Assembly (NCBI RefSeq): GCF_030684315.1
Contig: NC_081396.1
Coordinates: 1,984,001 to 2,048,000 of the forward strand
Source: Stegostoma tigrinum
Taxonomy: Eukaryota
DNA length: 64,000 bases
Direction of reading: 5' to 3'
Shown: in pieces, positions 17,899 to 58,344 of the stretch
How positions within the stretch are numbered: position 1 is the first letter of the stretch
Layout: the number at the start of each line of letters is the position of its first letter
Notes under the pieces: generated by a model
What the model was told of the DNA's origin: nothing
Seen by the model: only the letters and a program-made list of their open reading frames with translations
Databases searched by the model: none
Translations under genes and position numbers: made by a program

Positions 17899-20800
17899 AT
17901 GCATGAACCTGCTATTGGTCCGATATTTGCGATTTGCTACCCCATTCTCGCTGTTGTTGGTACCCCTGGTGAGTCATAAATCCTAAAGATGTTTCTGTTT
18001 TTGTAGATCAAAAGAGCAATTCTCTTTTCCTTTTCAGTCAGTAATATCCCTGCAGTTACAGGCTAGTCTCAGCAGTAAAGGCTTTGAAAATATCATCGTT
18101 TACGATAAAACCACGCATGGTTCTCTTTTGATCTTTCGGGAAGGCGATTATGCTATCCTTCCCTGGTCTTGACTCATTTAGACTCCAGACCCACTGCAAT
18201 GTGACATATTTTGGCTTCCCTGTGAAACGTCAGAGAATGTTTTACATTTCAAAGGAATTGAGAGAAGAACAAGAAATGCTGATCTTTGCTGCGGTGATCA
18301 ATTTTTTTGAAGTTTTTTTTGTTATTTCTGTTTTCTGGTGGAAGATGGTGCATTACATGATCTTGAATAATGAAGCATTCGACGATATTACTTGAATTTT
18401 AGGTGTGTAAATTAATAGAAATATGATCAAATAGATTGATGGACGATGAATAATAATGTATAATATCGCACAAACAATTTGTATTAATTCCATAATGCAA
18501 ATATATGTCACTCAGTCTCTCCCTCTTATCTGATGTGGAAAAGTTAATGTGCCAGCTACCATTTACAATTTCCTCTGTTTTTCATGATGTAAGATTGTTT
18601 AAAACAGAAATTTAATAACACTGTGTGTTTTGTTTTCATTAATTTCAAATACTTTTCAATCAGCACTTATTCAAATCATATTAATATATTTTCAAAAAGT
18701 CACTAATGTAAGCCTTTTTGGATTCTTTATGTTGGTTGTTAGGTGCGAAGCAGCGATTTTGGATTCTCTCGAGGGCACAGTGATCCTGTTTTAAAATAGT
18801 TTCTGCCGTTCTTGTTACATTATTTGTTTTTTGGTACTGTTACAACGTTGTCTAGTTCACTCTTTTCTGTTGTTTTACAGATCAAAGAAACCTTCTTGTG
18901 AGGGTATTTGTCAAAACTAATCTCTGAGTGCAAAGTTAAACGTACATGAATATCTAATGAAATTCCCCAGTATCTAATCAATTTAAACATCTAATTTTGT
19001 TCGAATATATGTCTACATTAATATGCAAACATAATTATTTAAAAACCTTCAACTCAGGTGGATCAAGCTTCTTGTTTCTACTTCATTCGAAATTGGAAGT
19101 TTTAAATTTAGTTTATATCTAAATCATCCTATCAGAGTCTTAGTCTCTGTATTATTTTCCCATTTTACTAAAAGGCCACGAATTGGTCGATATTAAATTC
19201 TCTATCAGATGAAATATCCTTGTACTTTTTTGTGCCAGATTTTAAAAATAAATATTAAGAGTGTATTGTAGATATTCACCGGGAGACGTGGAGAGTTCTT
19301 CAAGACATTGATTATTTATTTTCAAATAAAAACCGTGACAACCAGAAAACGAATTCTTGATTGCCCCCAAATCCCAGGGTCTGTTATTTTTTATACCTTT
19401 TAGTTATCATACCTTCTTCAAAAATATCAGCATGCCCAATGGTGTCATAGGGGTTATCTTTCTACTCTTAGGAGTAAGTCAATGCTGTTAGTTAATGTTA
19501 TTTTTCTGTTTCTGCCACTATGTTTTTTTTTCTACTTCAAACTAAGATAATGATTATTTATTGCTACATCTGCCACATTGGTCCTTCGCCTCGGGTTGAC
19601 CCCATTACATCATGCCAGTCCTTGCCTCGAGCTGATCCCATTATGTCATGCTAATCCTTACTTCTATGTTACATGCTTTAATTAACCTAATTGAGCTACC
19701 GTTAATAGCTAGTCTAGTTATACTACCATTGTTCTACACTTCTTTGACATATGTTCAAGCACCTCATTCTATTAAAGTACAGCATTCCATTGATTATTGT
19801 AACATTCCATAATTCAGTACATCATCCTACTGATCACTGTAAAATTTAACCCTTTGATCGCCCCCATATTTTTTATTTCCCATCAAGAGCTGAGGCTGTG
19901 CAGCAGTCCAGGAGGAATGGCTGATAGCTCATAGAGTCTATGTTTCACTGATCAGCATTTTCAATGATATTTATTTTGTGAAATGTTCAAATCAACATTG
20001 GATGTGGATAAATAATCATTAAGCTTGGAGTTACCAAATAGACGCATTGGGATAACTTTAGTAATAGATTAGATCAGGCATTAGTCAGTGGCTTCAGACT
20101 GCTTTGTAAAATGTCTCTCTGTTTTGATCTTGCACAGCTAACTTGGTGGCGATCATAATCCTATGCCGAGGACAGTGTGGACTTTCATTGTGTATCACCT
20201 ACTACCTAGTGGCGATAGCAGTGTCAGATTTCCTTGTCATCATTTTTGCCGTCATCCTAAACAGGATCACTCGCCTTTATTTTAGGTACAGTCTGCTTTC
20301 TACCACACCCGGGTGCAGACTCAGCACTGTACTAGTTTATGTCACCCAGGATTGTTCAGTTTGGCTGACAGTGGCCTTCACCATTGACCGCTTTGTGGCC
20401 ATTTGCTGTCAAAGTCTCAAGGTCAGATATTGCACTGAGAAAACTGCATTGATGGCCATAGCAATAGTCTGTGCTTTAGGTTGCATTAAGAACATCCCTT
20501 TCTATTTCATCTATCAGCCACTGTACGTGTTGGATGGTGTACCACGGTTCTGTGACATTAAATCGACTTTTTATGCCTTACCTATCTGGCAAGTCTACGA
20601 CTGGTTGGACCACGTCTTAACCCCCTTTCTACCATTTGTCCTCATTTTGCTGCTTAATGCCATGACCGTAAGGCACATTCTAATGGCTAGCCGAGCCCGT
20701 AAGAGACTTCGAGGCATTGAGAATGGCAGAGATACAGAGATGGCCAACCGTAGGAAGTCTATTGTTCTCCTCTTCACAATCTCTCTCAGCTTCCTCTGTT

Positions 20801-21039
20801 TGTGGGCCACGCATGTTGGACGTTTCCTCTATGTCCAGGTTACGGGTAAGGGTTACTTCATCGGCCTGGATGTCAAGGACTTGCAGTATATCTTTCAAGA
20901 GATGACGAACATGCTCCAGTTACTCAGTTCTTGCAATAACGTCTTCATATATGCAGTATCTCAGACGAAGTTCAGAAAGGAGCTGCAGAAAATAATGATG
21001 TTTCCTTTCACTGGGATCATTTCTTGCATTAATCAGTGA
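17899..21039 (+). CDS. GPR139/GPR142-like orphan class A GPCR, two exons (17899-17968, 20138-21039), 323 aa, intact
   Basis: Exon 1 MHEPAIGPIFAICYPILAVVGTP|GTGAG; acceptor GCACAG. Seven hydrophobic segments with SVWLTVAFTIDRFVAIC, PFVLILLLN and SSCNNVFIY. Phase-1 intron inside TM1, as I recall for GPR139. Confidence 0.9.
19262..19885 (-). mobile_element. Solo LTR (ERV-like) in the GPCR intron
   Basis: TG...CA ends and 4-bp direct repeat AGAG (19258-19261, 19886-19889). Both ends are homologous to 28632-29320. Orientation inferred. Confidence 0.7.
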
Positions 21040-24144: not shown

Positions 24145-25661
24145 AAGATAATAAAATGTGAGGCTGGATGAACACAGCAGGCCAAGCAGCATCTCAGGAG
24201 CACAAAAGCTGACGTTTCGGGCCTAGACCCTTCATCAGAGAGGGGGATGGGGGGAGGGAACTGGAATAAATAGGGAGAGAGGGGGAGGCGGACCGAAGAT
24301 GGAGAGTAAAGAAGATAGGTGGAGAGGGTGTAGGTGGGGAGGTAGGGAGGGGATAGGTCAGTCCAGGGAAGACGGACAGGTCAAGGAGGTGGGATGAGGT
24401 TAGTAGGTAGCTGGGGGTGCGGCTTGGGGTGGGAGGAAGGGATGGGTGAGAGGAAGAACCGGTTAGGGAGGCAGAGACAGGTTGGACTGGTTTTGGGATG
24501 CAGTGGGTGGGGGGGAATAGCTGGGCTGGTTGTGTGGTGCAGTGGGGGGAGGGGATGAACTGGGCTGGTTTAGGGATGCAGTGGGGGAAGGGGAGATTTT
24601 GAAACTGGTGAAGTCCACATTGATACCATATGGCTGCAGGGTTCCCAGGCGGAATATGAGTTGCTGTTCCTGCAACCTTCGGGTGGCATCATTGTGGCAG
24701 TGCAGGAGGCCCATGATGGACATGTCATCAAGAGAATGGGAGGGGGAGTGGAAATGGTTTGCGACTGGGAGGCGCAGTTGTTTGTTGCGAACTGAGCGGA
24801 GGTGTTCTGCAAAGCGGTCCCCAAGCCTCCGCTTGGTTTCCCCAATGTAGAGGTAGCCGCACCGGGTACAGTGGATGCAGTATACCACATTGGCAGATGT
24901 GCAGGTGAACCTCTGCTTAATGTGGAATGTCATCTTGGGGCCTGGGATGGGGGTGAGGGAGGAGGTGTGGGGACAAGTGTAGCATTTCCTGCGGTTGCAG
25001 GGGAAGGTGCCGGGTGTGGTGGGGTTGGAGGGCAGTGTGGAGCGAACAAGGGAGTCACGGAGAGAGTGGTCTCTCCGGAAAGCAGACAGGGGAGGGGATG
25101 GAAAAATGTCTTGGGTGGTGGGGTCGGATTGTAAATGGCGGAAGTGTCGGAGGATAATGTGTTGTATCCGGAGGTTGGTAGGGTGGTGTGTGAGAACGAG
25201 GGGGATCCTCTTGGGGCGGTTGTGGCGGGGGCGGGGTGTGAGGGATGTGTCGCGGGAGATGCGGGAGACGCGATCATGGGCGTTCTCAATCACCGTGGGG
25301 GGAAAGTTGCGGTCCTTAAAGAACTTGGACATCTGGGATGTGCGGGAGTGGAATGTCTTATCGTGGGAGCAGATGCGGCGGAGGCGGAGGAATTGGGAAT
25401 AGGGGATGGAATTTTTGCAGGAGGGTGGGTGGGAGGAGGTGTATTCTAGGTAGCTGTGGGAGTCGGTGGGCTTGAAATGGACATCAGTTACAAGCTGGTT
25501 GCCTTCAGATGGAGACTGAGAGGTCCAGGAAGGTGAGGGATATGCTGGAGATGGCCCAGGTGAACTGAAGGTTGGGGTGGAAGGTGTTGGTGAAGTGGAT
25601 GAACTGTTCGAGCTCCTCTGGGGAGCAAGAGGCGGCGCCGATACAGTCATCAATGTACCGG
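24145..25661 (-). mobile_element. Penelope-like retroelement, 5'-truncated (RT C-terminus + GIY-YIG endonuclease + tail)
   Basis: RYIDD...TFLDL RT motifs; KPTDSHSYL; SIPYSQFLRLRRIC; VVYCIHC...LYIGETKRRLGDRFAEH (GIY-YIG). One frameshift near 25505. Confidence 0.92.
24209..24240 (-). ncRNA. Minimal hammerhead ribozyme motif in the Penelope tail
   Basis: Reverse complement is CT-CTGATGA-A-GGG TCTAGG CCC-GAAA-CG-TC-AG. Confidence 0.75.
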
Positions 25662-26966
25662 ATTCCATCCCCTATTCCCAATTCCTCCGCCTCCGCCGCA
25701 TCTGCTCCCACGATAAGACATTCCACTCCCGCACATCCCAGATGTCCAAGTTCTTTAAGGACCGCAACTTTCCCCCGACGGTGATTGAGAACGCCCTTGA
25801 CCGCGTCTCCCGCATCTCCCGCGACACATCCCTCACACCCCGCCCCCACCACAACCGCCCCAAGAGGATCCCCCTCGTTCTCACACACCACCCTACCAAC
25901 CTCCGGATACAACGCATTATCCTCCGACACTTCCGCCATTTACAATCCGACCCCACCACCCAAGACATTTTTCCATCCCCTCCCCTGTCTGCTTTCCGGC
26001 GAGACCACTCTCTCCGTGACTCCCTTGTTCGCTCCACACTGCCCTCCAACCCCACCACACCCGGCACCTTCCCCTGCAACCGCAGGAAATGCTACACTTG
26101 TCCCCACACCTCCTCCCTCACCCCCATCCCAGGCCACAAGATGACATTCCACATTAAGCAGAGGTTCACCTGCACATCTGCCAATGTGGTATACTGCATC
26201 CACTGTACCCGGTGCGGCTACCTCTACATTGGGGAAACCAAGCGGAGGCTTGGGGACCGCTTTGCAGAACACCTCCGCTCAGTTCGCAACAAACAACTGC
26301 ACCTCCCAGTCGCAAACCATTTCCACTCCCCCTCCCATTCTCTTGATGACATGTCCATCATGGGCCTCCTGCACTGCCACAATGATGCCACCCGAAGGTT
26401 GCAGGAACAGCAACTCATATTCCGCCTGGGAACCCTGCAGCCATATGGTATCAATGTGGACTTCACCAGTTTCAAAATCTCCCCTTCCCCCACTGCATCC
26501 CTAAACCAGCCCAGTTCATCCCCTCCCCCCACTGCACCACACAACCAGCCCAGCTCTTCCCCCCCACCCACTGCATCCCAAAACCAGTCCAACCTGTCTC
26601 TGCCTCCCTAACCGGTTCTTCCTCTCACCCATCCCTTCCTCCCACCCCAAGCCGCACCCCCAGCTACCTACTAACCTCATCCCACCTCCTTGACCTGTCC
26701 GTCTTCCCTGGACTGACCTATCCCCTCCCTACCTCCCCACCTACACCCTCTCCACCTATCTTCTTTCCTCTCCATCTTCGGTCCGCCTCCCCCTCTCTCC
26801 CTATTTATTCCAGTTCCCTCCCCCCATCCCCCTCTCTGATGAAGGGTCTAGGCCCGAAACGTCAGCTTTTGTGCTCCTGAGATGCTGCTTGGCCTGCTGT
26901 GTTCATCCAGCCTCACATTTTATTATCTTGGAATCTCCAGCATCTGCAGTTCCCATTATCTCTTAT
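25662..26966 (+). mobile_element. Penelope-like retroelement, second copy, inverted relative to the first
   Basis: ORF 25577-26611 carries the same GIY-YIG domain with only a handful of substitutions versus the left copy. The composite is flanked by ACCTGATTATTCTAA (24132-24146, 26967-26981). Confidence 0.92.
26834..26865 (+). ncRNA. Minimal hammerhead ribozyme motif in the Penelope tail
   Basis: CT-CTGATGA-A-GGG TCTAGG CCC-GAAA-CG-TC-AG: conserved CUGANGA/GAAA/UH core with a very short palindromic stem III. Confidence 0.75.
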
Positions 26967-46717: not shown

Positions 46718-49076
46718 TCATTTAAGAAATTGCAGCAATGGATATTTCAGCCAATTCTGTAGCTCGACTCTAAATTTATTCAGTGTTCCAGCATAAATGA
46801 ATGGGTTAATGCAGGAACACAAAAATAACAGCATGAATCCATTCTCTTCAAGGATAAATGTCGATTTACTGAAACCAGAACCGGAGAAATAGGTAACTTT
46901 AGCAAATCGGACATACAGGATCGTTATAAAAGATAACAGATACAACAATAGGAAACTGCCTGAAATTGCAAAGAGTAAAACAATGGACCTTCTCCGCTTC
47001 TCCATCTCTGGATCACTCTGATGCTGTCCGTGACTCTGGCCCCGAAGTCTCCTGCGGGATCTCATGGCCACTAGAATGCATCGAACAGTCAGAGCATTGA
47101 GTAGTAAAATCAGAATGAATGGTAGAAGAGGATTGAAAATGCTACGAATTAAATCATATGCTGCCCATGCAGGTGAACTATAAAATATTAGCTTTGGATT
47201 GCAGAACCAAGATACATTTTTAAACGTGTACAGAGGTTCATATATAAAATATAGAAATGCACTTTTAATGCAACACAATACAGACACAACTCCTATGGCC
47301 CTCGCTGCTGTCTGTTTGGTGCAATATTTAGTTTTCAGCTCCTGACAAGAAATCATCACAAATCTATCAAAGGTGAAAGAGACAGTTAACCAGGTTGAAC
47401 TATCTACAGCAGTGGAGGTTAAGACAGTGCGGAGACTGCAAACTGGAGTGATGGAAAGGAAACTGTATGGAAAGTAAATCCCAGCAATCCGGTTTAGTAC
47501 TACAGAGGTAACCAGCACCAGGAGATCTGACACCGCAATGGACAGCAGGTAAAGAATCACACAGGCAGACAGACCACATCTTCTCTGAGACAGAATCGCA
47601 ATCACAGTCAAATTAGCTGTAAAAGACATTGAGAAAGAAGAAGGGTGGGAGATATGGGGTGGCGGAGAGACAGAGGGAGAGAATTTGTGTTTCATAATGT
47701 GGAAGAACAGTCAAACTACTTCTTCAATTTATGGTAAAATTATCTATTTCACTGGATAAACTGTGAAGCATATAACTATGATCATTATACCTTGCACCAG
47801 GTGCCATCGTTATTGCATTCAAAATAAACGTACAGCTTAAAAATATGCTTGGATTTTAGCAGACATCTGCAACAAGAGTAAGTCATATCTAGAAAACAGT
47901 GTTCCATTAAATGACCCAGATGAATAATAACAGCAAAATACTTCAGAAAAATGTTGCAGTGGGCAAATAGTAAAGTGACAATCAACTTTGTGGAAAGTGG
48001 TTGGAACACGGGTTACACTTCATTCAGGGTCAAATACAATTTGTTTTTAGGGAATGAGTTGAAACTATTCACAGAAACTATATGCTGAGATAAATATGGA
48101 AACAAAACAAAGCGTGGGCTAATTTCACTTTTCCACGTTTCGAAAGAAATGTGGACAGCACTGAATTTTAATATTGACTTCTTCAGCTGATAATTGCATG
48201 GACCTTTGGTGTGCAGTTCTGCAATGCTTGGAATCTTACCTTCTCCGAATTACTTACAAATCAATAATAGAAATGCTTCAAAAAGGAAACCAGTGCTATT
48301 CGTAGTAGTTTGCATGTGATCTCATTATGCCAACAAAAGTAAACCAGAGTTGCCCTAGATCTAAATTCGACGTCTCTCATAATAAACTGCTATTTCTATC
48401 ATTTTAAAGTAGCAATGACAAAATGAAAAGCATTGCACTGCAGTAATTTTGTGATATTTGGTCCTTGAAAGCACTACTAATAATACAGAATAATTGCACT
48501 AACCTAGATAACAATATCGTAAGTCTTCCACAGTGATCGGGAGCAAAGCAATATATCTATGTTTATATCTTGAGATGATAATGATAAAGGGGGGTCGGGG
48601 CTAGTATTACAACGTTAACATGACACACGTCACTCACAGGCACATAAGCATGAAAGGGGTAAATTAGGCAGTTCATGAGAAAAAAAAACGACACGGGAAA
48701 GCTGGTGAAACAACATGTCAAATAAGACAAATGAAAATATACACATGGAGAGAAATTATCTCAGTCAATATCATAACTTATTAAATTATTTGGCGAGGCA
48801 AGACATTTAAAGTAAAATAATGATGGTGTAATTAAAAAGCAGAAATAATATCACATCAAGCGAAAATTTTGTACCGTTGAAGTGATACTAGTATCTAGTT
48901 AAGAGCAGAAAGAATATATATCATGGAGATGAGCTCGTGGCAAAGTGACGAATTGATGCAGTTGACCAACGATCCACGCAGCTACGACTGAAGTTCTATA
49001 CCTCACCTGGCACTCCGATTACTGCAAGGATGGGATAGTAAATGGAAAATACCAGACCTTTCGGTATTCCATGCAT
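46718..49076 (-). CDS. GPR139/GPR142-like orphan class A GPCR, two exons (49076-49007, 47616-46718), 322 aa, intact
   Basis: Exon 1 MHGIPKGLVFSIYYPILAVIGVP|GTGAG; acceptor TTACAG. STWLTVSFTFDRFVMI, PFILILLLN and SCINPFIY. Same 70-nt first coding exon and intron phase as the paralog at 17899. Confidence 0.9.
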
Positions 49077-51627: not shown

Positions 51628-51655
51628 CACAGAGTTTTGGGTCCCGACAAAAATG
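51628..51655 (+). other. Orphan 12-RSS, possibly from a relic D segment
   Basis: CACAGAG + 12 nt + ACAAAAATG, preceded by D-like GGCACTGGGTGT. Confidence 0.45.
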
Positions 51656-52694: not shown

Positions 52695-53005
52695 ACGCGA
52701 CTTCACAGATTCAACAAACCCCTCCCCAATATCAAGGATAACAGAGTGGAGTGAAGATAAAATTCACACTAGTTTCACAGAACGCTGCGTGATTCCTCTT
52801 TAAAACTTACAGTATTCGCATGACACGGATCTGAAATCCATCCACAAAGCTGCCCATCAATATTCTCACAGAAGCTTCAACGTCAAGGTCTGTTCGATCC
52901 TTTCAATTATTTCAGTCCAACTCGGAAGTCCGTTTTCCTGTAGAGTTCTTGACTGCAGCAACCACCTGCCCGACATACAGGCCGTTAGTTCCAAGCAGCA
53001 GAAGC

Positions 53006-53474
53006 ATGAAAATCGTTGTTATTTTTATTCTGTATAGCTGGCTACCTCGTGAGTATTGATGAAACAAGCACACGTTGTTTTGATTCAATGTAAAGAATCC
53101 CATGAACATAGCCGCTGAGTTCACATTCTTTGTAGTTTTACTCTGCTTTGATTATCCATTTAATTCTCTCTTCTTAATTCCCAGGTTATTTCAGTCAGTC
53201 AGTGACACAAGCCCCAACAGCTGTGACCAAGAAGGAGTGTCAGTCTTTCATAATTACCTGTGTTTACTATGGTCACAACTGGGGTTATTATTTCGAAGAC
53301 GGATATTTCCTCAGGCAAACCCAGACCAGCACAGACCGGGAGCGGATATCCAGTGGAGGGAGATTTGTTGTACGCATGAACAAGGAAGAAAAAACTTTTT
53401 CACTGGAGATTCGGGATGTAAGAGTTGAAGATACCGCCACCTATTACTGTGAAGTACGTTACTACAATGATAGA
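53006..53474 (+). CDS. NARTCR: NAR-TCR variable gene segment (IgNAR-like V): leader 53006-53048 + V exon 53185-53474, intact
   Basis: Leader MKIVVIFILYSWLP|GTGAGT. V reads SQSVTQAPTAVTKKECQSFIITCVYY...LRQTQTSTDRERISSGGRFVVRMNKEEKTFSLEIRDVRVEDTATYYCEVR. The short FR2-CDR2 region (ISSGGRF) is typical of NAR V domains. Confidence 0.92.
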
Positions 53475-53512
53475 CACAGTGATGACCGAATATATCACGT
53501 AGTACAAAAACA
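53475..53512 (+). other. RSS of NAR-TCR V (23-class, 22-nt spacer)
   Basis: CACAGTG + 22 nt + ACAAAAACA. Confidence 0.93.
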
Positions 53513-53826
53513 CATTTTCCAGATTTTCACTCAGAAATACATGAAAGTATAACACCATTCTAGTATAAACAAAATAGATCTTGTAACATCTACGCCACAG
53601 TCTAATTTCCAATGTTACTTTTTTTTTAATTAGCGTTATCATCTGCAATTTTGAACACAACAAACTTCCGCAGAAGATGCTTGTTTTTCTTGTAATTGGA
53701 CTCTGTGTGTAAAAGTTGGGAATGAAGAAAACAGTTAAGAGTCCACAAACCAGGATCTGATTCTAAGAACTGGAACCTGGAGACACTGCTACTTAGTTAT
53801 TGTCTGCACATCTCACCAATACCTGG

Positions 53827-53897
53827 GGTTTGAATGTTGCTATGAAATACTGTGTCCTATTTGGGCTATCACAGTGGATGAGACCTGAACAAATATT
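53827..53897 (+). other. NAR-TCR D segment (coding 53855-53869) with 12-RSS on both sides
   Basis: GGTTTGAAT-12-TACTGTG [TCCTATTTGGGCTAT] CACAGTG-12-ACAAATATT. All three frames are open (SYLGY/PIWA/LFGL). Confidence 0.88.
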
Positions 53898-54203
53898 GCT
53901 GTGTAATTGAAATATATCGTTTGCTTTCCATGATTGTGAAATACATTCATTACTTTTGCTTTCCATGGTGTTAATTCCTTTTATTTTTTTTTCTGACCTC
54001 TCTCTATAGTTTTCTCCATTTCCCTGAAACTCTCTCCTCCACATTGCTGGGTCATCTTGCTAAGATTCAAAGTCTCACAAGTAACATTTTGAAACAATAC
54101 GGTCAGGAAAATATGGAACAATGTTCATTGATCTAAAGGCACTGAAAAATGAGAAACAGAATCAAGTGCCCTTAAGATGAGGCTGACAGCTTATACCAAT
54201 AAT

Positions 54204-54295
54204 GGTTCTTGCTCTGGTATGACTGACAACAGTGCCACTGTGTAGGGAATATAATACTGTAATTGGATCTGGGACAGCGGTGACGATCACAGCAG
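54204..54295 (+). other. NAR-TCR J segment (coding 54243-54295) with 23-RSS
   Basis: GGTTCTTGC-23-CACTGTG, then REYNTVIGSGTAVTITA and a phase-1 GTAAG donor at 54296. Confidence 0.92.
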
Positions 54296-54399
54296 GTAAG
54301 TGACTCCAAATGCATGTGTTACAAACTGTCTCAATTAATGTCCGTTGCCAGTTAATTTTTGAGACCCGTGTCACTTCAATCTTACAGTAGGAAGTCAGG

Positions 54400-55400
54400 G
54401 AATAATTACAGTTGGAAGTCAGGGAAGAAATCCAAGGTCCATATGATTTTTGGCCCAGCCTACGCTGAGAAATGATGAAGATAATCAAACCAGCGTTGAC
54501 CCAAACTTTTCCTTTCATCCTGGCCATAGAAATGGTTCCATATGACTGGAAAGCATTGAATACGTTTCCAAGTTTGAAGAAGGTTGGTAGTGATAAACCA
54601 GGAAGTTGCATACCAGTGAGTTTTACTTCAGCGACAAGGAAACGAATGGCAAGGCTCTCATTTTTAATAAGCAAGGTTTGAACACTGATAGTCAGATTTT
54701 GTCTCAGTGGGTTGTATCAACAGATTGAATTATTTTTAAAGATGATCAATTGAGTAAATGTGGATAGTGAAGCTTATGTAATTTATATAGATTTCAGCAA
54801 AGCCTTTGATAAGGCCTCACACTGGAGTCTGTGAAAGAACCTGGAAACACATCACATACAGGATAACTTGGCAAGTTGGATCCAGGCTGGCTTACTGGTA
54901 GGAGAATGGTAATGGAAAGCTATTTGTGTGTGTGGAAGACAGTATCCAATGGCTTACCACAGGAATCAGATCTGGGTCGCCATCAGACAGAATATCTTTA
55001 GTTATAGAAACATAGTTGATCAGATCGGCAGTTCGGAGGCAGATAGAATTTGAATTGGATAGCGTACTTTAGGGAAGTGAACCTGTAGTCCGTACTTGGT
55101 CTTGACCTATATTTGACTCCAGACGCACAGCAACGTGGTGGACACTTTACAGCCCTTTGGGCAATAAGGAATGGGCAAAAAATATTGGTCTAATCAGCAA
55201 CGCCCGCATCCTGTGAAGCTTTTTTTGTGCAATGTTTGGGAGATGTAATGAGACAATGGAATCTTCTTGGATGGCAGGATGCTGGGAAGCTGAGAAGAGC
55301 AGAGGGATCTTGGGATGCTTGCAAGCAGATCACTGAAGACAGCAGGACTTAATATGGTGATTAAGAAAGCATATAGGATACTTGCTATTATCAATCATGA
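54400..55400 (+). mobile_element. Old CR1 RT remnant within the J-to-supporting-V intron
   Basis: VPYDWK...KPGSCIPVSFTS and IYIDFSKAFDK remnants. Confidence 0.7.
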
Positions 55401-56347
55401 CAGTGTTTGGAAAAGTAGAGTGCAGCTGCGCAAGACTTCTGTTAGTCGAGAAGTGTGAGTTTCTCCTTTCAATAGACAGCATATATATATCGTTGAAAGG
55501 CTTTCTTTTGTCCAACGATCGTTCTATAATTCCATTCTACGATTATTTGACCACTGTCAGCTTGAATCCAATGGAGAACCATGAACTGCAATTTCCTCTC
55601 CAAGCTAATGTCCATGCTGACTTGGTGAATATGTCTTTATCGCTGAGTCTAATTCCAAAAATCACTCCTAACGGCATTTTGGCTGTACTTAGCACCCAAT
55701 GGTTTGCACTTGTGCATAAAGGCGGCTAACAACCTCCTACTAATGAGCAACTAGGTGTGAGAAACGAGCTCTCACTCCGACAGCTACATTCTGATCTCAA
55801 AAATGAATAAAAAAGTAGACACATAAAACTGGTGCACTCTCCAACTCCAAAAGTTTGAGTTTCTGAGAAAAGGAGAATTAAGTGTGGGAATACATCCACC
55901 GTTTGTGATTTTTGAAAAAATTATGTGCAGATTTTAGTAGAAATCAGAGAATTAAACAGAGCAAAATCTTATCATAACCTCCACAACGTCCCGGTGGATT
56001 CTTCCAAATTATTTTAAAACTGTGATCATCACCCTTACGTTTTCCAGTGCTCTGATAATTATTAAACGTGTTAGATTTTTTTTTCAAAATTCCCGTTTGA
56101 GAGTTACTTTGACTAATTCCCATTCGTCGTATATTCTGTCATATGACCCTGATCACAACAACTTGCATTCTGTTTTCCAAAAAAAATCTCCACATCTCGC
56201 TGCTTTTTTTGTGTGTTAATTCTTGTGAAGACATACCAAAACTACACCAAATGAAGAATAAGTCCTTATTAATAGAGCTGTACAGAACATTAACATGTTT
56301 TACAGAAACAAAGGACACACAATAAACTTTTTTTTAAAATCTGACAG

Positions 56348-56657
56348 ATTCCACTTCGCTGGTTTCCCAGAGTCCACTTTTACAGGCCTCCGCTGTTGAT
56401 GACACTGTTGCTTTAAGCTGTGAATATTCAGGCTTCTGTCAGTATGTAGTTTACTGGTACAGCCAGTCCCCAAGACAGGCGATGAAATATCTGCTTCAGG
56501 GACATACTTCAGGAGAAGAGAAGAAGCTAAATGCGGCCACGGAACGTCTTTCTACCACAAACGACCCTGCAGCGAAAATCACCCACTTAAAGATCTCTGC
56601 AATACAACTGAATGATTCTGCTGTGTATTACTGTGCACTCAGTAAGCGCTCAAGAAA
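56348..56657 (+). CDS. TRDV: Leaderless supporting TCR delta V segment of NAR-TCR, intact
   Basis: Acceptor CTGACAG is in phase with the J donor. Reads DSTSLVSQSPLLQASAVDDTVALSCEYSGFCQYVVYWYSQSPRQAMKYLL...KISAIQLNDSAVYYCALSK, with an extra Cys in CDR1. No convincing leader exon upstream. Confidence 0.92.
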
Positions 56658-56879
56658 CACAGCGATATAAAGACTGGGAGAGCTGTACAAAAACCTGAAC
56701 ATTATGGTATTGCAGACACAAGGGTCCAGAGCGAGCGTGGAGAGCGCTGTGCAGAGCATGCACACGTTGAGGATTACATTCACAGTGTTATAGAGACTGG
56801 AGTGGCTTTTACAAAAACATGAGAGTGGTAGGCTTACAGACGTAGTGATTTAGACCAAGGAGAGAGCTGTACAAAAACT
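56658..56879 (+). repeat. Tandem array of four RSS-like units (about 60-bp period); unit 1 is the supporting V RSS
   Basis: U1 CACAGCG-22-ACAAAAACC (56658); U2 CACAAGG-27-GCAGAGCAT (56717); U3 CACAGTG-23-ACAAAAACA (56781); U4 CGTAGTG-23-ACAAAAACT (56841). All three linkers are 21 nt. Confidence 0.85.
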
Positions 56880-58344
56880 TGACTACAAAGCCGTGTACAG
56901 GTAGAGTTTGGTGGAGCAGTGACCTGAATCTACAGGGCATTTTTCTTCTGAATTTGCCTGTTCACAAAATATAGCGGAAACACATCAATTTCAGGGTTAA
57001 TTCTGTTTCAGTGATACTTATTATAACTTCCAACGTTCCAGATGATTATTGTACCAACATTCATTGTGGAAGATATAACATTCAACTTTTAACTTGGCAA
57101 ATTATGGAGCAAGTTAAGTACATAAACTTATGGGGAAACAGCAACGATTCTAAAACTAATTGCATTACGCCTTCCCATAGTGGGAACGATTACGAATAAA
57201 ATTCCTCCATGTTGCCTGTTTATATGGTTAGAAATTTCTCTTTCTGTAGTTTTCTTTTCTTCTTGTTGAAAGATATCCCGAAAGAGGCATTCAAACGACA
57301 ATAGGAAAATCACTTTCCAAACTATTAATATGAGAGTGACCTTGTTTTGTTCCATCACTGCCAATAGGAAAATCCAATAGAATGCTCAGGTTCAGTGACA
57401 ATGAGAATCTATCGTGAAACATCCAGATTCTCTGTCTGTTTAACACATCTCAAGAGCTTCTGTATGTCTTTCATTCTATTCAACTCTTTCTGTCCAGCAA
57501 CGATTTTACATGAATTTTAGTCTTCATGTGAAGTTTAGTTTTATTTCCGCACTTACTTTGCCAAGCTGTGATGAGACTATCGTGAGAACATTTCTTAAAT
57601 GCTCTTAGTTGTTGCTTGTTTTCCGTTTTTACTGGTTATGCTGTGGTTTTACTGTTTCTCATTGAGAACTTCCTCTTTCGCATTTCTGACAATTTCAATT
57701 CCCTCAACCCATCCAACGATTCATTCGCGTGTACACTGAGGGTATCTTTGCGTAAGCTTTGCATTAAAATCAATCTTCAGGTTCAAGACAGATTCTTTGA
57801 CCCATACATGTTTTTTTTTGAAGCTAGACCTACACTCCCAATCTACCAATAGTGAACTTTTGCCTTTATGGCCCTTTATCTCCCGACTATTTTCTTCCTC
57901 CAACATTTTTTCTTGTCAACTCGCTCTGCATCTCAATGAGCATTTTTTTGTGCAGAAACATACTTCCCCATATATTCTGTTCTGTGAGTGCCTGCTCCTT
58001 GTTCTAGATTCACCTCAAAAGACAGTGGTTCCACATCCACCTCATTCGAATTGTTCATGATTTTATACTTTTCCATTTTCTGGTTCCATATTTCCATCAG
58101 AAAATGGGGGCAGCTGTCTCATATATTTCAGAGCAGTGTAATTGTCAGTTCACCTCCATTATTTTAGGTGGTTAAGAAGTCACAGTAAAACTTATGTTAA
58201 TATAAGAACTATGAATATGGGAGGCCAGTCGACGTTTCGAGCTTTTTCCACCATTCAGTATGATCATGGATGGTTATCTCCTTTCAAATAACTGTCCCGA
58301 TATATTCCAAACAAAGAGAAATCTCGATGATTCAATGATTACTC

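Follow-up and report, generated by a model that had tools for sequence, protein, structure and literature searches.

As a general rule there is one recombination signal sequence (RSS) at the end of each V segment, made of a heptamer, a spacer and a nonamer. Why should a V segment of the shark Stegostoma tigrinum be followed by four such units in a row, and do the spare ones serve any purpose? This is the question raised by the locus which we describe here. The window, that is the whole stretch of 64,000 nucleotides which was analysed (positions 1,984,001 to 2,048,000 of NC_081396.1), carries one complete NAR-TCR cassette: leader, NAR V, D, J and a leaderless supporting V. Such cassettes of cartilaginous fishes were reportedly described by Criscitiello et al. 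in 2006. The features found in the window (Table 1) fit the NAR-TCR description in the available excerpts of PMC1845163, including the CDR1 cysteine. The last V belongs to the supporting Vdelta class: it has leader, NAR V, D and J in front, lacks its own leader, has an extra cysteine in CDR1 and is linked to the delta locus. Part of P0001, a protein of S. tigrinum, is identical to it. Elsewhere in the window there are two long open frames which resemble seven-transmembrane receptors, in positions 20128-21036 (+) and 46721-47710 (-), and an inverted pair of near-identical retroelement-like open frames in 24197-26877, with 39-bp tandem repeats at both ends. A lone weak 12-RSS-like site is found in 51628-51655, upstream of the leader, with no recognised gene segment.

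Table 1. Features of the NAR-TCR cassette and of the RSS array in the window. Scores were obtained with the home-made matrix described in the text
Feature	Positions	Strand	Evidence and remarks
Leader exon of the NAR-TCR cassette	53006..53048	+	Sequence; match to the P0001 N-terminus
NAR V exon, IgNAR-like N-terminal V	53185..53474	+	Open frame, P0001, paralogues
NAR V RSS, single, 22-nt spacer, without array	53475..53512	+	Scan, reading
NAR D, flanked on both sides by a 12-spacer RSS with an imperfect nonamer	53855..53869	+	By eye, unscored
NAR J; 23-RSS in front on the - strand (heptamer 54236-54242)	54243..54295	+	Scan, reading, P0001
Supporting Vdelta exon without leader; open frame, additional cysteine in CDR1	56348..56657	+	Identical to a part of P0001
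Unit 1, the V's own RSS	56658..56695	+	CACAGCG, 22 nt, ACAAAAACC; score 24.3 (controls 16.1-28.7)
Linker 1, 21 nt, probable decayed duplicate of the final ~22 coding bases of the V	56696..56716	+	Family linker compared with V end, p 0.01-0.02
Unit 2 (dead copy of the RSS) and linker 2	56717..56780	+	CACAAGG, degenerate nonamer; score -20
Unit 3, spare 23-RSS of control quality	56781..56819	+	CACAGTG, 23 nt, ACAAAAACA; score 26.1
Linker 3, 21 nt	56820..56840	+	Direct reading, scan
Unit 4, heptamer lost, nonamer kept	56841..56879	+	CGTAGTG, 23 nt, ACAAAAACT; array stops just past unit 4

The partners of this cassette lie on the - strand of the same contig, at 947-961 kb: Cdelta, nine Jdelta which carry 12-RSSs and one Ddelta (5' 12-RSS, 3' 23-RSS), with Jalpha beyond. 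Upstream of Cdelta we found only this one Ddelta against the nine Jdelta (L039-L041, G000:C55:947000-970000). The cassette is read from the + strand and is separated from Ddelta-Jdelta-Cdelta by about 1.08 Mb; given this opposite orientation it would be joined to Ddelta by inversion. The main NAR-TCR cluster (5.2-5.8 Mb of the contig) is about 3.2 Mb away from the cassette (53006-56879). All the open-frame NAR cassettes found are on the + strand; three NAR cassettes or NAR V on the - strand (L016, L018 and L019, at about 2.25, 1.36 and 1.71 Mb of G000:C55), deletional with respect to Ddelta, are all broken.

Behind the supporting Vdelta, direct reading and a scan give four units of about 61 bp in 56658-56879, as the preliminary description had proposed, and an independent short-read contig of run X1 has them too. 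The details also hold: unit 3 has the heptamer CACAGTG and a 23-nt spacer as against CACAGCG and 22 nt in unit 1, and a TAA in the frame of the V is found inside unit 1 (56668-56670). A 22-nt spacer is not unusual here, since the NAR V RSS at 53475 has the same length. Unit 2 has a spacer of 27 nt, which includes a 4-nt insertion. Only units 1 and 3 have together a CAC and a good nonamer. Scoring of the units, as had been proposed, placed both within the range of working V segments, with a matrix of our own, distinct from the RIC model, for which the 23-RSSs of 37 ordinary V segments were used (25 of this locus and 12 of unrelated loci). No site of control quality appeared in 100 kb of background (both strands of window positions 1-50000). 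Unit 3 thus combines a CAC heptamer, a spacer of 22-24 nt, an A-rich nonamer and a matrix score typical of a working V. The spare units are not D segments, as the array has no 5' 12-RSS.

A profile built from unit 1 recovers units 2-4 with E values of 0.23, 0.014 and 2e-7. Tandem Repeats Finder missed the window array and a lag-identity measure did not separate it from the controls (0.40 against values up to 0.45), so that it is the profile which carries the case for the window. The X1 contig, which may come from the source sample, covers 52900-57300 without a break and differs by one letter within the array; as it spans the whole cassette, the array is not an assembly artefact. No contig of runs X8-X10 matched the cassette, which carries no weight either way. 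The same contig lacks one letter of the NAR V nonamer (53506), possibly an allele or an error in either sequence. X1 contigs are of the germline type. In one of them there is a joint 56701-56852 with a side of 23 letters and no heptamer at that place, which we take as a paralogue or repeat.

The array is found behind all the supporting V which we could locate. Eleven paralogues came from a DNA search and three more from protein searches; L013 was left out as it is the same locus as L009. In total 15 of 15 loci have an array, with 2-8 units of about 61 bp each and 73 units altogether. Absence from paralogous and orthologous cassettes, which the preliminary description had considered as the mark of a neutral slippage, is not what we see: every paralogue found has the array. 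In these counts L011 is classed as broken despite having no stop, as its conserved Trp motif is lost; L015, in which the first canonical Cys is missing, is placed among the open-frame loci. None of 41 other V segments examined in the locus has an array (34 ordinary and 7 NAR-type, out of roughly 110 V matches; one control V, cut at the locus end, was left out). When the genome was searched with the array itself, the five matches, a lower bound, were all at supporting V loci; this search gave no copies away from V genes, as would be expected of a dispersed satellite or a transposon remnant. A metagenome scan gave unrelated V genes only, none with an array. A search of representative proteins gave no further supporting V with read-through, and a protein search restricted to 'near' length gave no matches.

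In other elasmobranchs the evidence comes from gene-model proteins which read through the RSS, and is thus at the protein and not at the DNA level. When the tail after the first nonamer was compared with a model of the unit, the fit was above all 60 shuffles in two proteins of Rhincodon (whale shark), five of Hemiscyllium (epaulette shark), one of Pristiophorus (sawshark, a tail of 13 residues), one of Pristis (sawfish) and in P0073. Two other short tails (P0062 and P0023) and five spliced controls failed to fit. A total of 33 of 72 elasmobranch proteins end at the first heptamer by a frame stop and are uninformative for the array. The Rhincodon protein P0002 is a likely orthologue of the window cassette and has the same stop in unit 1. 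The presence of the array in sharks and one ray suggests, at the protein level, that it predates the shark-ray split, and its presence in all paralogues and in other elasmobranchs indicates that it is not a local slip. Together with the X1 contig, these observations rule out local slippage or an assembly artefact. As judged from sequence comparison, the array is real, old and family-specific.

Are the spare units maintained as signals? In the preliminary description the signals of the spares were expected to outlast the spacers, and in the S. tigrinum genome they do not; we found better kept heptamers and nonamers only in P0073, which is discussed below. In independent pairs of positional orthologues, spare units have 31 changes in 203 signal positions and 85 in 548 other positions (p 1.0), a rate ratio of 0.98 (95% interval 0.67-1.44), or 0.87 (0.51-1.5) when only open-frame cassettes are taken; these are averaged tests, which leave room for selection on one spare per array. 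The ratio for unit 1 is 0.21, and in pairs of open-frame paralogues its signals have 3 changes in 56 positions against 43 in 165 for the rest (p 0.0005). By its pattern of substitutions, unit 1 is behaving as a working RSS with protected signals. The comparison with the family consensus is given by four values, for heptamer, spacer, nonamer and linker: they are 0.72, 0.79, 0.79 and 0.75 in the spares, and 0.95, 0.77, 0.97 and 0.76 in unit 1 of open-frame V.

None of the 15 arrays, tested one by one, has protected spare signals. An apparent protection of unit 3 in the window (1/16 against 14/42, p 0.03) was one of 45 tests and depends on the placement of gaps; it was set aside. Of the 58 spare units, 13 are too incomplete and were left out of the tests of per-unit protection, of excess of near-perfect signals and of base composition. 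By their score 9 of the 58 are usable, in 8 of the 15 loci and including unit 3 of the window; L002, L003 and L005, three of the eight open-frame cassettes, have none. In young paralogues the usable spare occupies different positions. Four orectolobiform read-through proteins have 7 of 21 signal codons changed, and 18 of 50 of the others. Between close paralogues the spare array is conserved (0.84-0.88) like the intron (0.86-0.89) and the 3' flank (0.83-0.87). The flanks of distant cassettes still align at about 63-78%, in pieces, so that a long survival of the array needs no selection.

We find it fairly probable that the array is an ancient duplication of the V tail with its RSS, and that in the S. 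tigrinum genome the spares are a decaying relic. The last ~22 bases of a V and its RSS would have been duplicated, likely once, in the ancestor of the family before sharks and rays separated. The consensus of the linkers resembles the 3' end of the V (p 0.01 against shuffles and 0.02 against control windows) and most arrays terminate at a nonamer or just after it, moderate evidence which fits such a duplication. Slippage of pairs of units would then have given arrays of 2-8 units with an A-B-A-B pattern: units 2 and 4 of L004 are 90% alike, and the A-B pattern is apparent in L003, L005, L006 and L008. A single origin in the family ancestor would explain that only the supporting V class has the array. 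At present the spares of S. tigrinum would decay at the rate of flanking DNA, with probably unit 1 alone under selection. Their long survival may be due to the slow change of non-coding DNA in sharks; according to the available part of PMC10587355 the mutation rate of sharks is very low, with 7e-10 per base per generation. A few intact spares, such as unit 3 of the window, may be cut now and then and joined by inversion to the single Ddelta, with germline DNA kept in the joint. Because of the TAA in unit 1, such a join at unit 3 is non-productive in the window, and it would be a tolerated leak rather than a device.

Some results do not favour a relic. P0073 has five units which are read through, and in its units 2-5 none of 18 signal codons differs from the consensus, as compared with 20 of 57 other codons (p 0.0015). 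The value becomes p 0.014 once six changes shared between its units are removed by eye, and a direct comparison of unit 2 with unit 5 gives 0/5 against 8/15 (p 0.051). P0073 is a single array, studied at the protein level and selected by its open frame, and the same codon test gives 0.47 against 0.45 in the S. tigrinum genome. With these qualifications, P0073 keeps the functional reading alive for other lineages. Near-perfect spares are also somewhat more frequent than expected: open-frame cassettes have 7 among their 33 units, where 3.2 would be expected (p 0.03, or p 0.10 when counted by locus; p 0.07 for overdispersion). Later copies made from unit 1 would give the same excess. Three signals of L015 are near-perfect, and their spacers differ by about 25%; the supporting V of this locus (L015:4426-5020) has the best-kept array and a frame open to unit 2, and lacks the first canonical Cys and seven residues. 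None of the 15 loci has been reduced to one unit.

A function for these sequences can be tentatively proposed. The supporting V has no promoter and is reached by inversion over megabases (1.1-4.8 Mb from Ddelta); a row of additional 23-RSSs might for this reason raise the chance that RAG captures it. After inversional joining at a spare, unit 1 would be in deletional orientation to the 12-RSSs of Jdelta, and a second join at short range would complete the gene. The array would then be an ancient landing pad with several RSSs, part of a two-step mode of V(D)J joining by capture and retry; that some lineages (P0073) have retained such a mode, and that it is relaxed in S. tigrinum, is a possibility to which we give limited weight, and the function may be ancestral. 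The geometry allows it, with one Ddelta (12/23) and nine Jdelta with 12-RSSs, all on the opposite strand. The array is confined to a single leaderless V class and has persisted both in sharks and in a ray, 8/15 loci have one or more usable spares, and the spare signals of P0073 are kept. In addition, alternative RSSs beside the gene's own one are used in mouse TRBJ, at less than 0.1% for TRBJ1-2, according to the accessible sections of PMC6857471. However, the spare signals of S. tigrinum are unprotected, 3/8 open-frame cassettes lack a usable spare, and family-specificity follows as well from a single origin without function. The serial rearrangement device advanced in the preliminary description is thus partly supported, by a geometry which allows it and by the signals of P0073, and not by any protection of the spares in S. 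tigrinum.

A decoy or a loading platform, also advanced there, appears unlikely. Either the nonamers of the spares would bind RAG1 and no cut would follow, or the spares would limit the output of NAR-TCR by wasting rearrangements. The three nonamers said to be preserved are indeed present in the window, and spare heptamers are slightly worse than the rest (0.72 against 0.78, p 0.085), mostly in one clade. But over the family the spare nonamers are no better conserved than the spacers (0.79 in both, p 0.94); what makes them look better preserved is that A positions are less variable throughout the unit (0.17, against 0.25-0.29 for C and G).

It is quite improbable that the array extends CDR3, a join at unit 2 adding about 20 germline residues to that of the supporting V. 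Of 13 loci tested, 10 have a V frame which stays open as far as unit 2, and in L015, L007, L011 and L012 this unit qualifies as a usable RSS; all these four have a damaged or atypical V, however, the frame is closed in the window, and the 33/72 elasmobranch proteins mentioned above stop at the unit-1 heptamer. No such junction was found among 205 V ends scored, mostly gene models and thus a weak test.

Finally, a purine-skewed AID target similar to a switch region, suggested by AGCT motifs (9.2 per kb against 2.9 in the flanks), GC skew 0.17, AT skew 0.39 and the action of AID on shark TCR genes (PMC6795676, as far as its available text goes), is very improbable: the motifs belong to the RSS spacer and are no better kept (0.79-0.82 against 0.78), the arrays are short (about 110-450 bp) and are not long conserved-motif repeats, and a join at unit 1 takes the array out of the gene.

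Whichever reading holds, the array is an exception to the rule of one RSS, family-wide and common to sharks and a ray. It can serve as a marker for the annotation of supporting Vdelta genes, it cautions against annotating the spares as D segments, and it offers a natural set of adjacent RSSs in competition. If capture and retry takes place, it would be a new way to raise the use of a promoterless V, and would bear on the coordination of two rearrangements in one chain. As a relic, the array would show for how long shark genomes tolerate a neutral repeat that contains targets of RAG.

The available portions of the published descriptions of NAR-TCR in cartilaginous fishes (PMC1845163, PMC3457774, PMC6795676 and PMC12227049) likewise place within the TCR alpha/delta locus a leader, NAR V, D and J and, behind them, a TCRdelta V which lacks a leader and has a cysteine in CDR1, as found here; those portions do not mention a repeated RSS behind the supporting V. 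In our literature search we did not find tandem RSSs in this position, which Criscitiello 2006, Deiss 2019 and Ott 2021 may mention. The supplement of PMC3964593, which may bear on novelty, gave no match for the array, and its text may not be searchable. The array is apparently undescribed.

DeltaRec and the kappa-deleting element are stand-alone RSSs without coding function, which delete a locus; the spares of the shark differ from them by being tied to a V and by being unprotected in the S. tigrinum genome. In VH replacement the signal, a conserved heptamer, lies within the coding V, and this V is replaced. The shark spares are instead full copies of the RSS outside the V, which would be kept. 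A second signal at the end of the V, the 3' cryptic RSS of VH replacement, also allows further rearrangement. The TRBJ1-7 and TRBJ1-2 genes of the mouse, as presented in the accessible sections of PMC6857471, have a second RSS 31-40 bp past the gene's own one, and when this second RSS is used the coding joint retains germline DNA with the first RSS in it, as would be the case after a join at a spare. The mouse sites are single cryptic RSSs which arose by chance at a J, whereas the shark array is formed by head-to-tail duplicates present across species in a V family.
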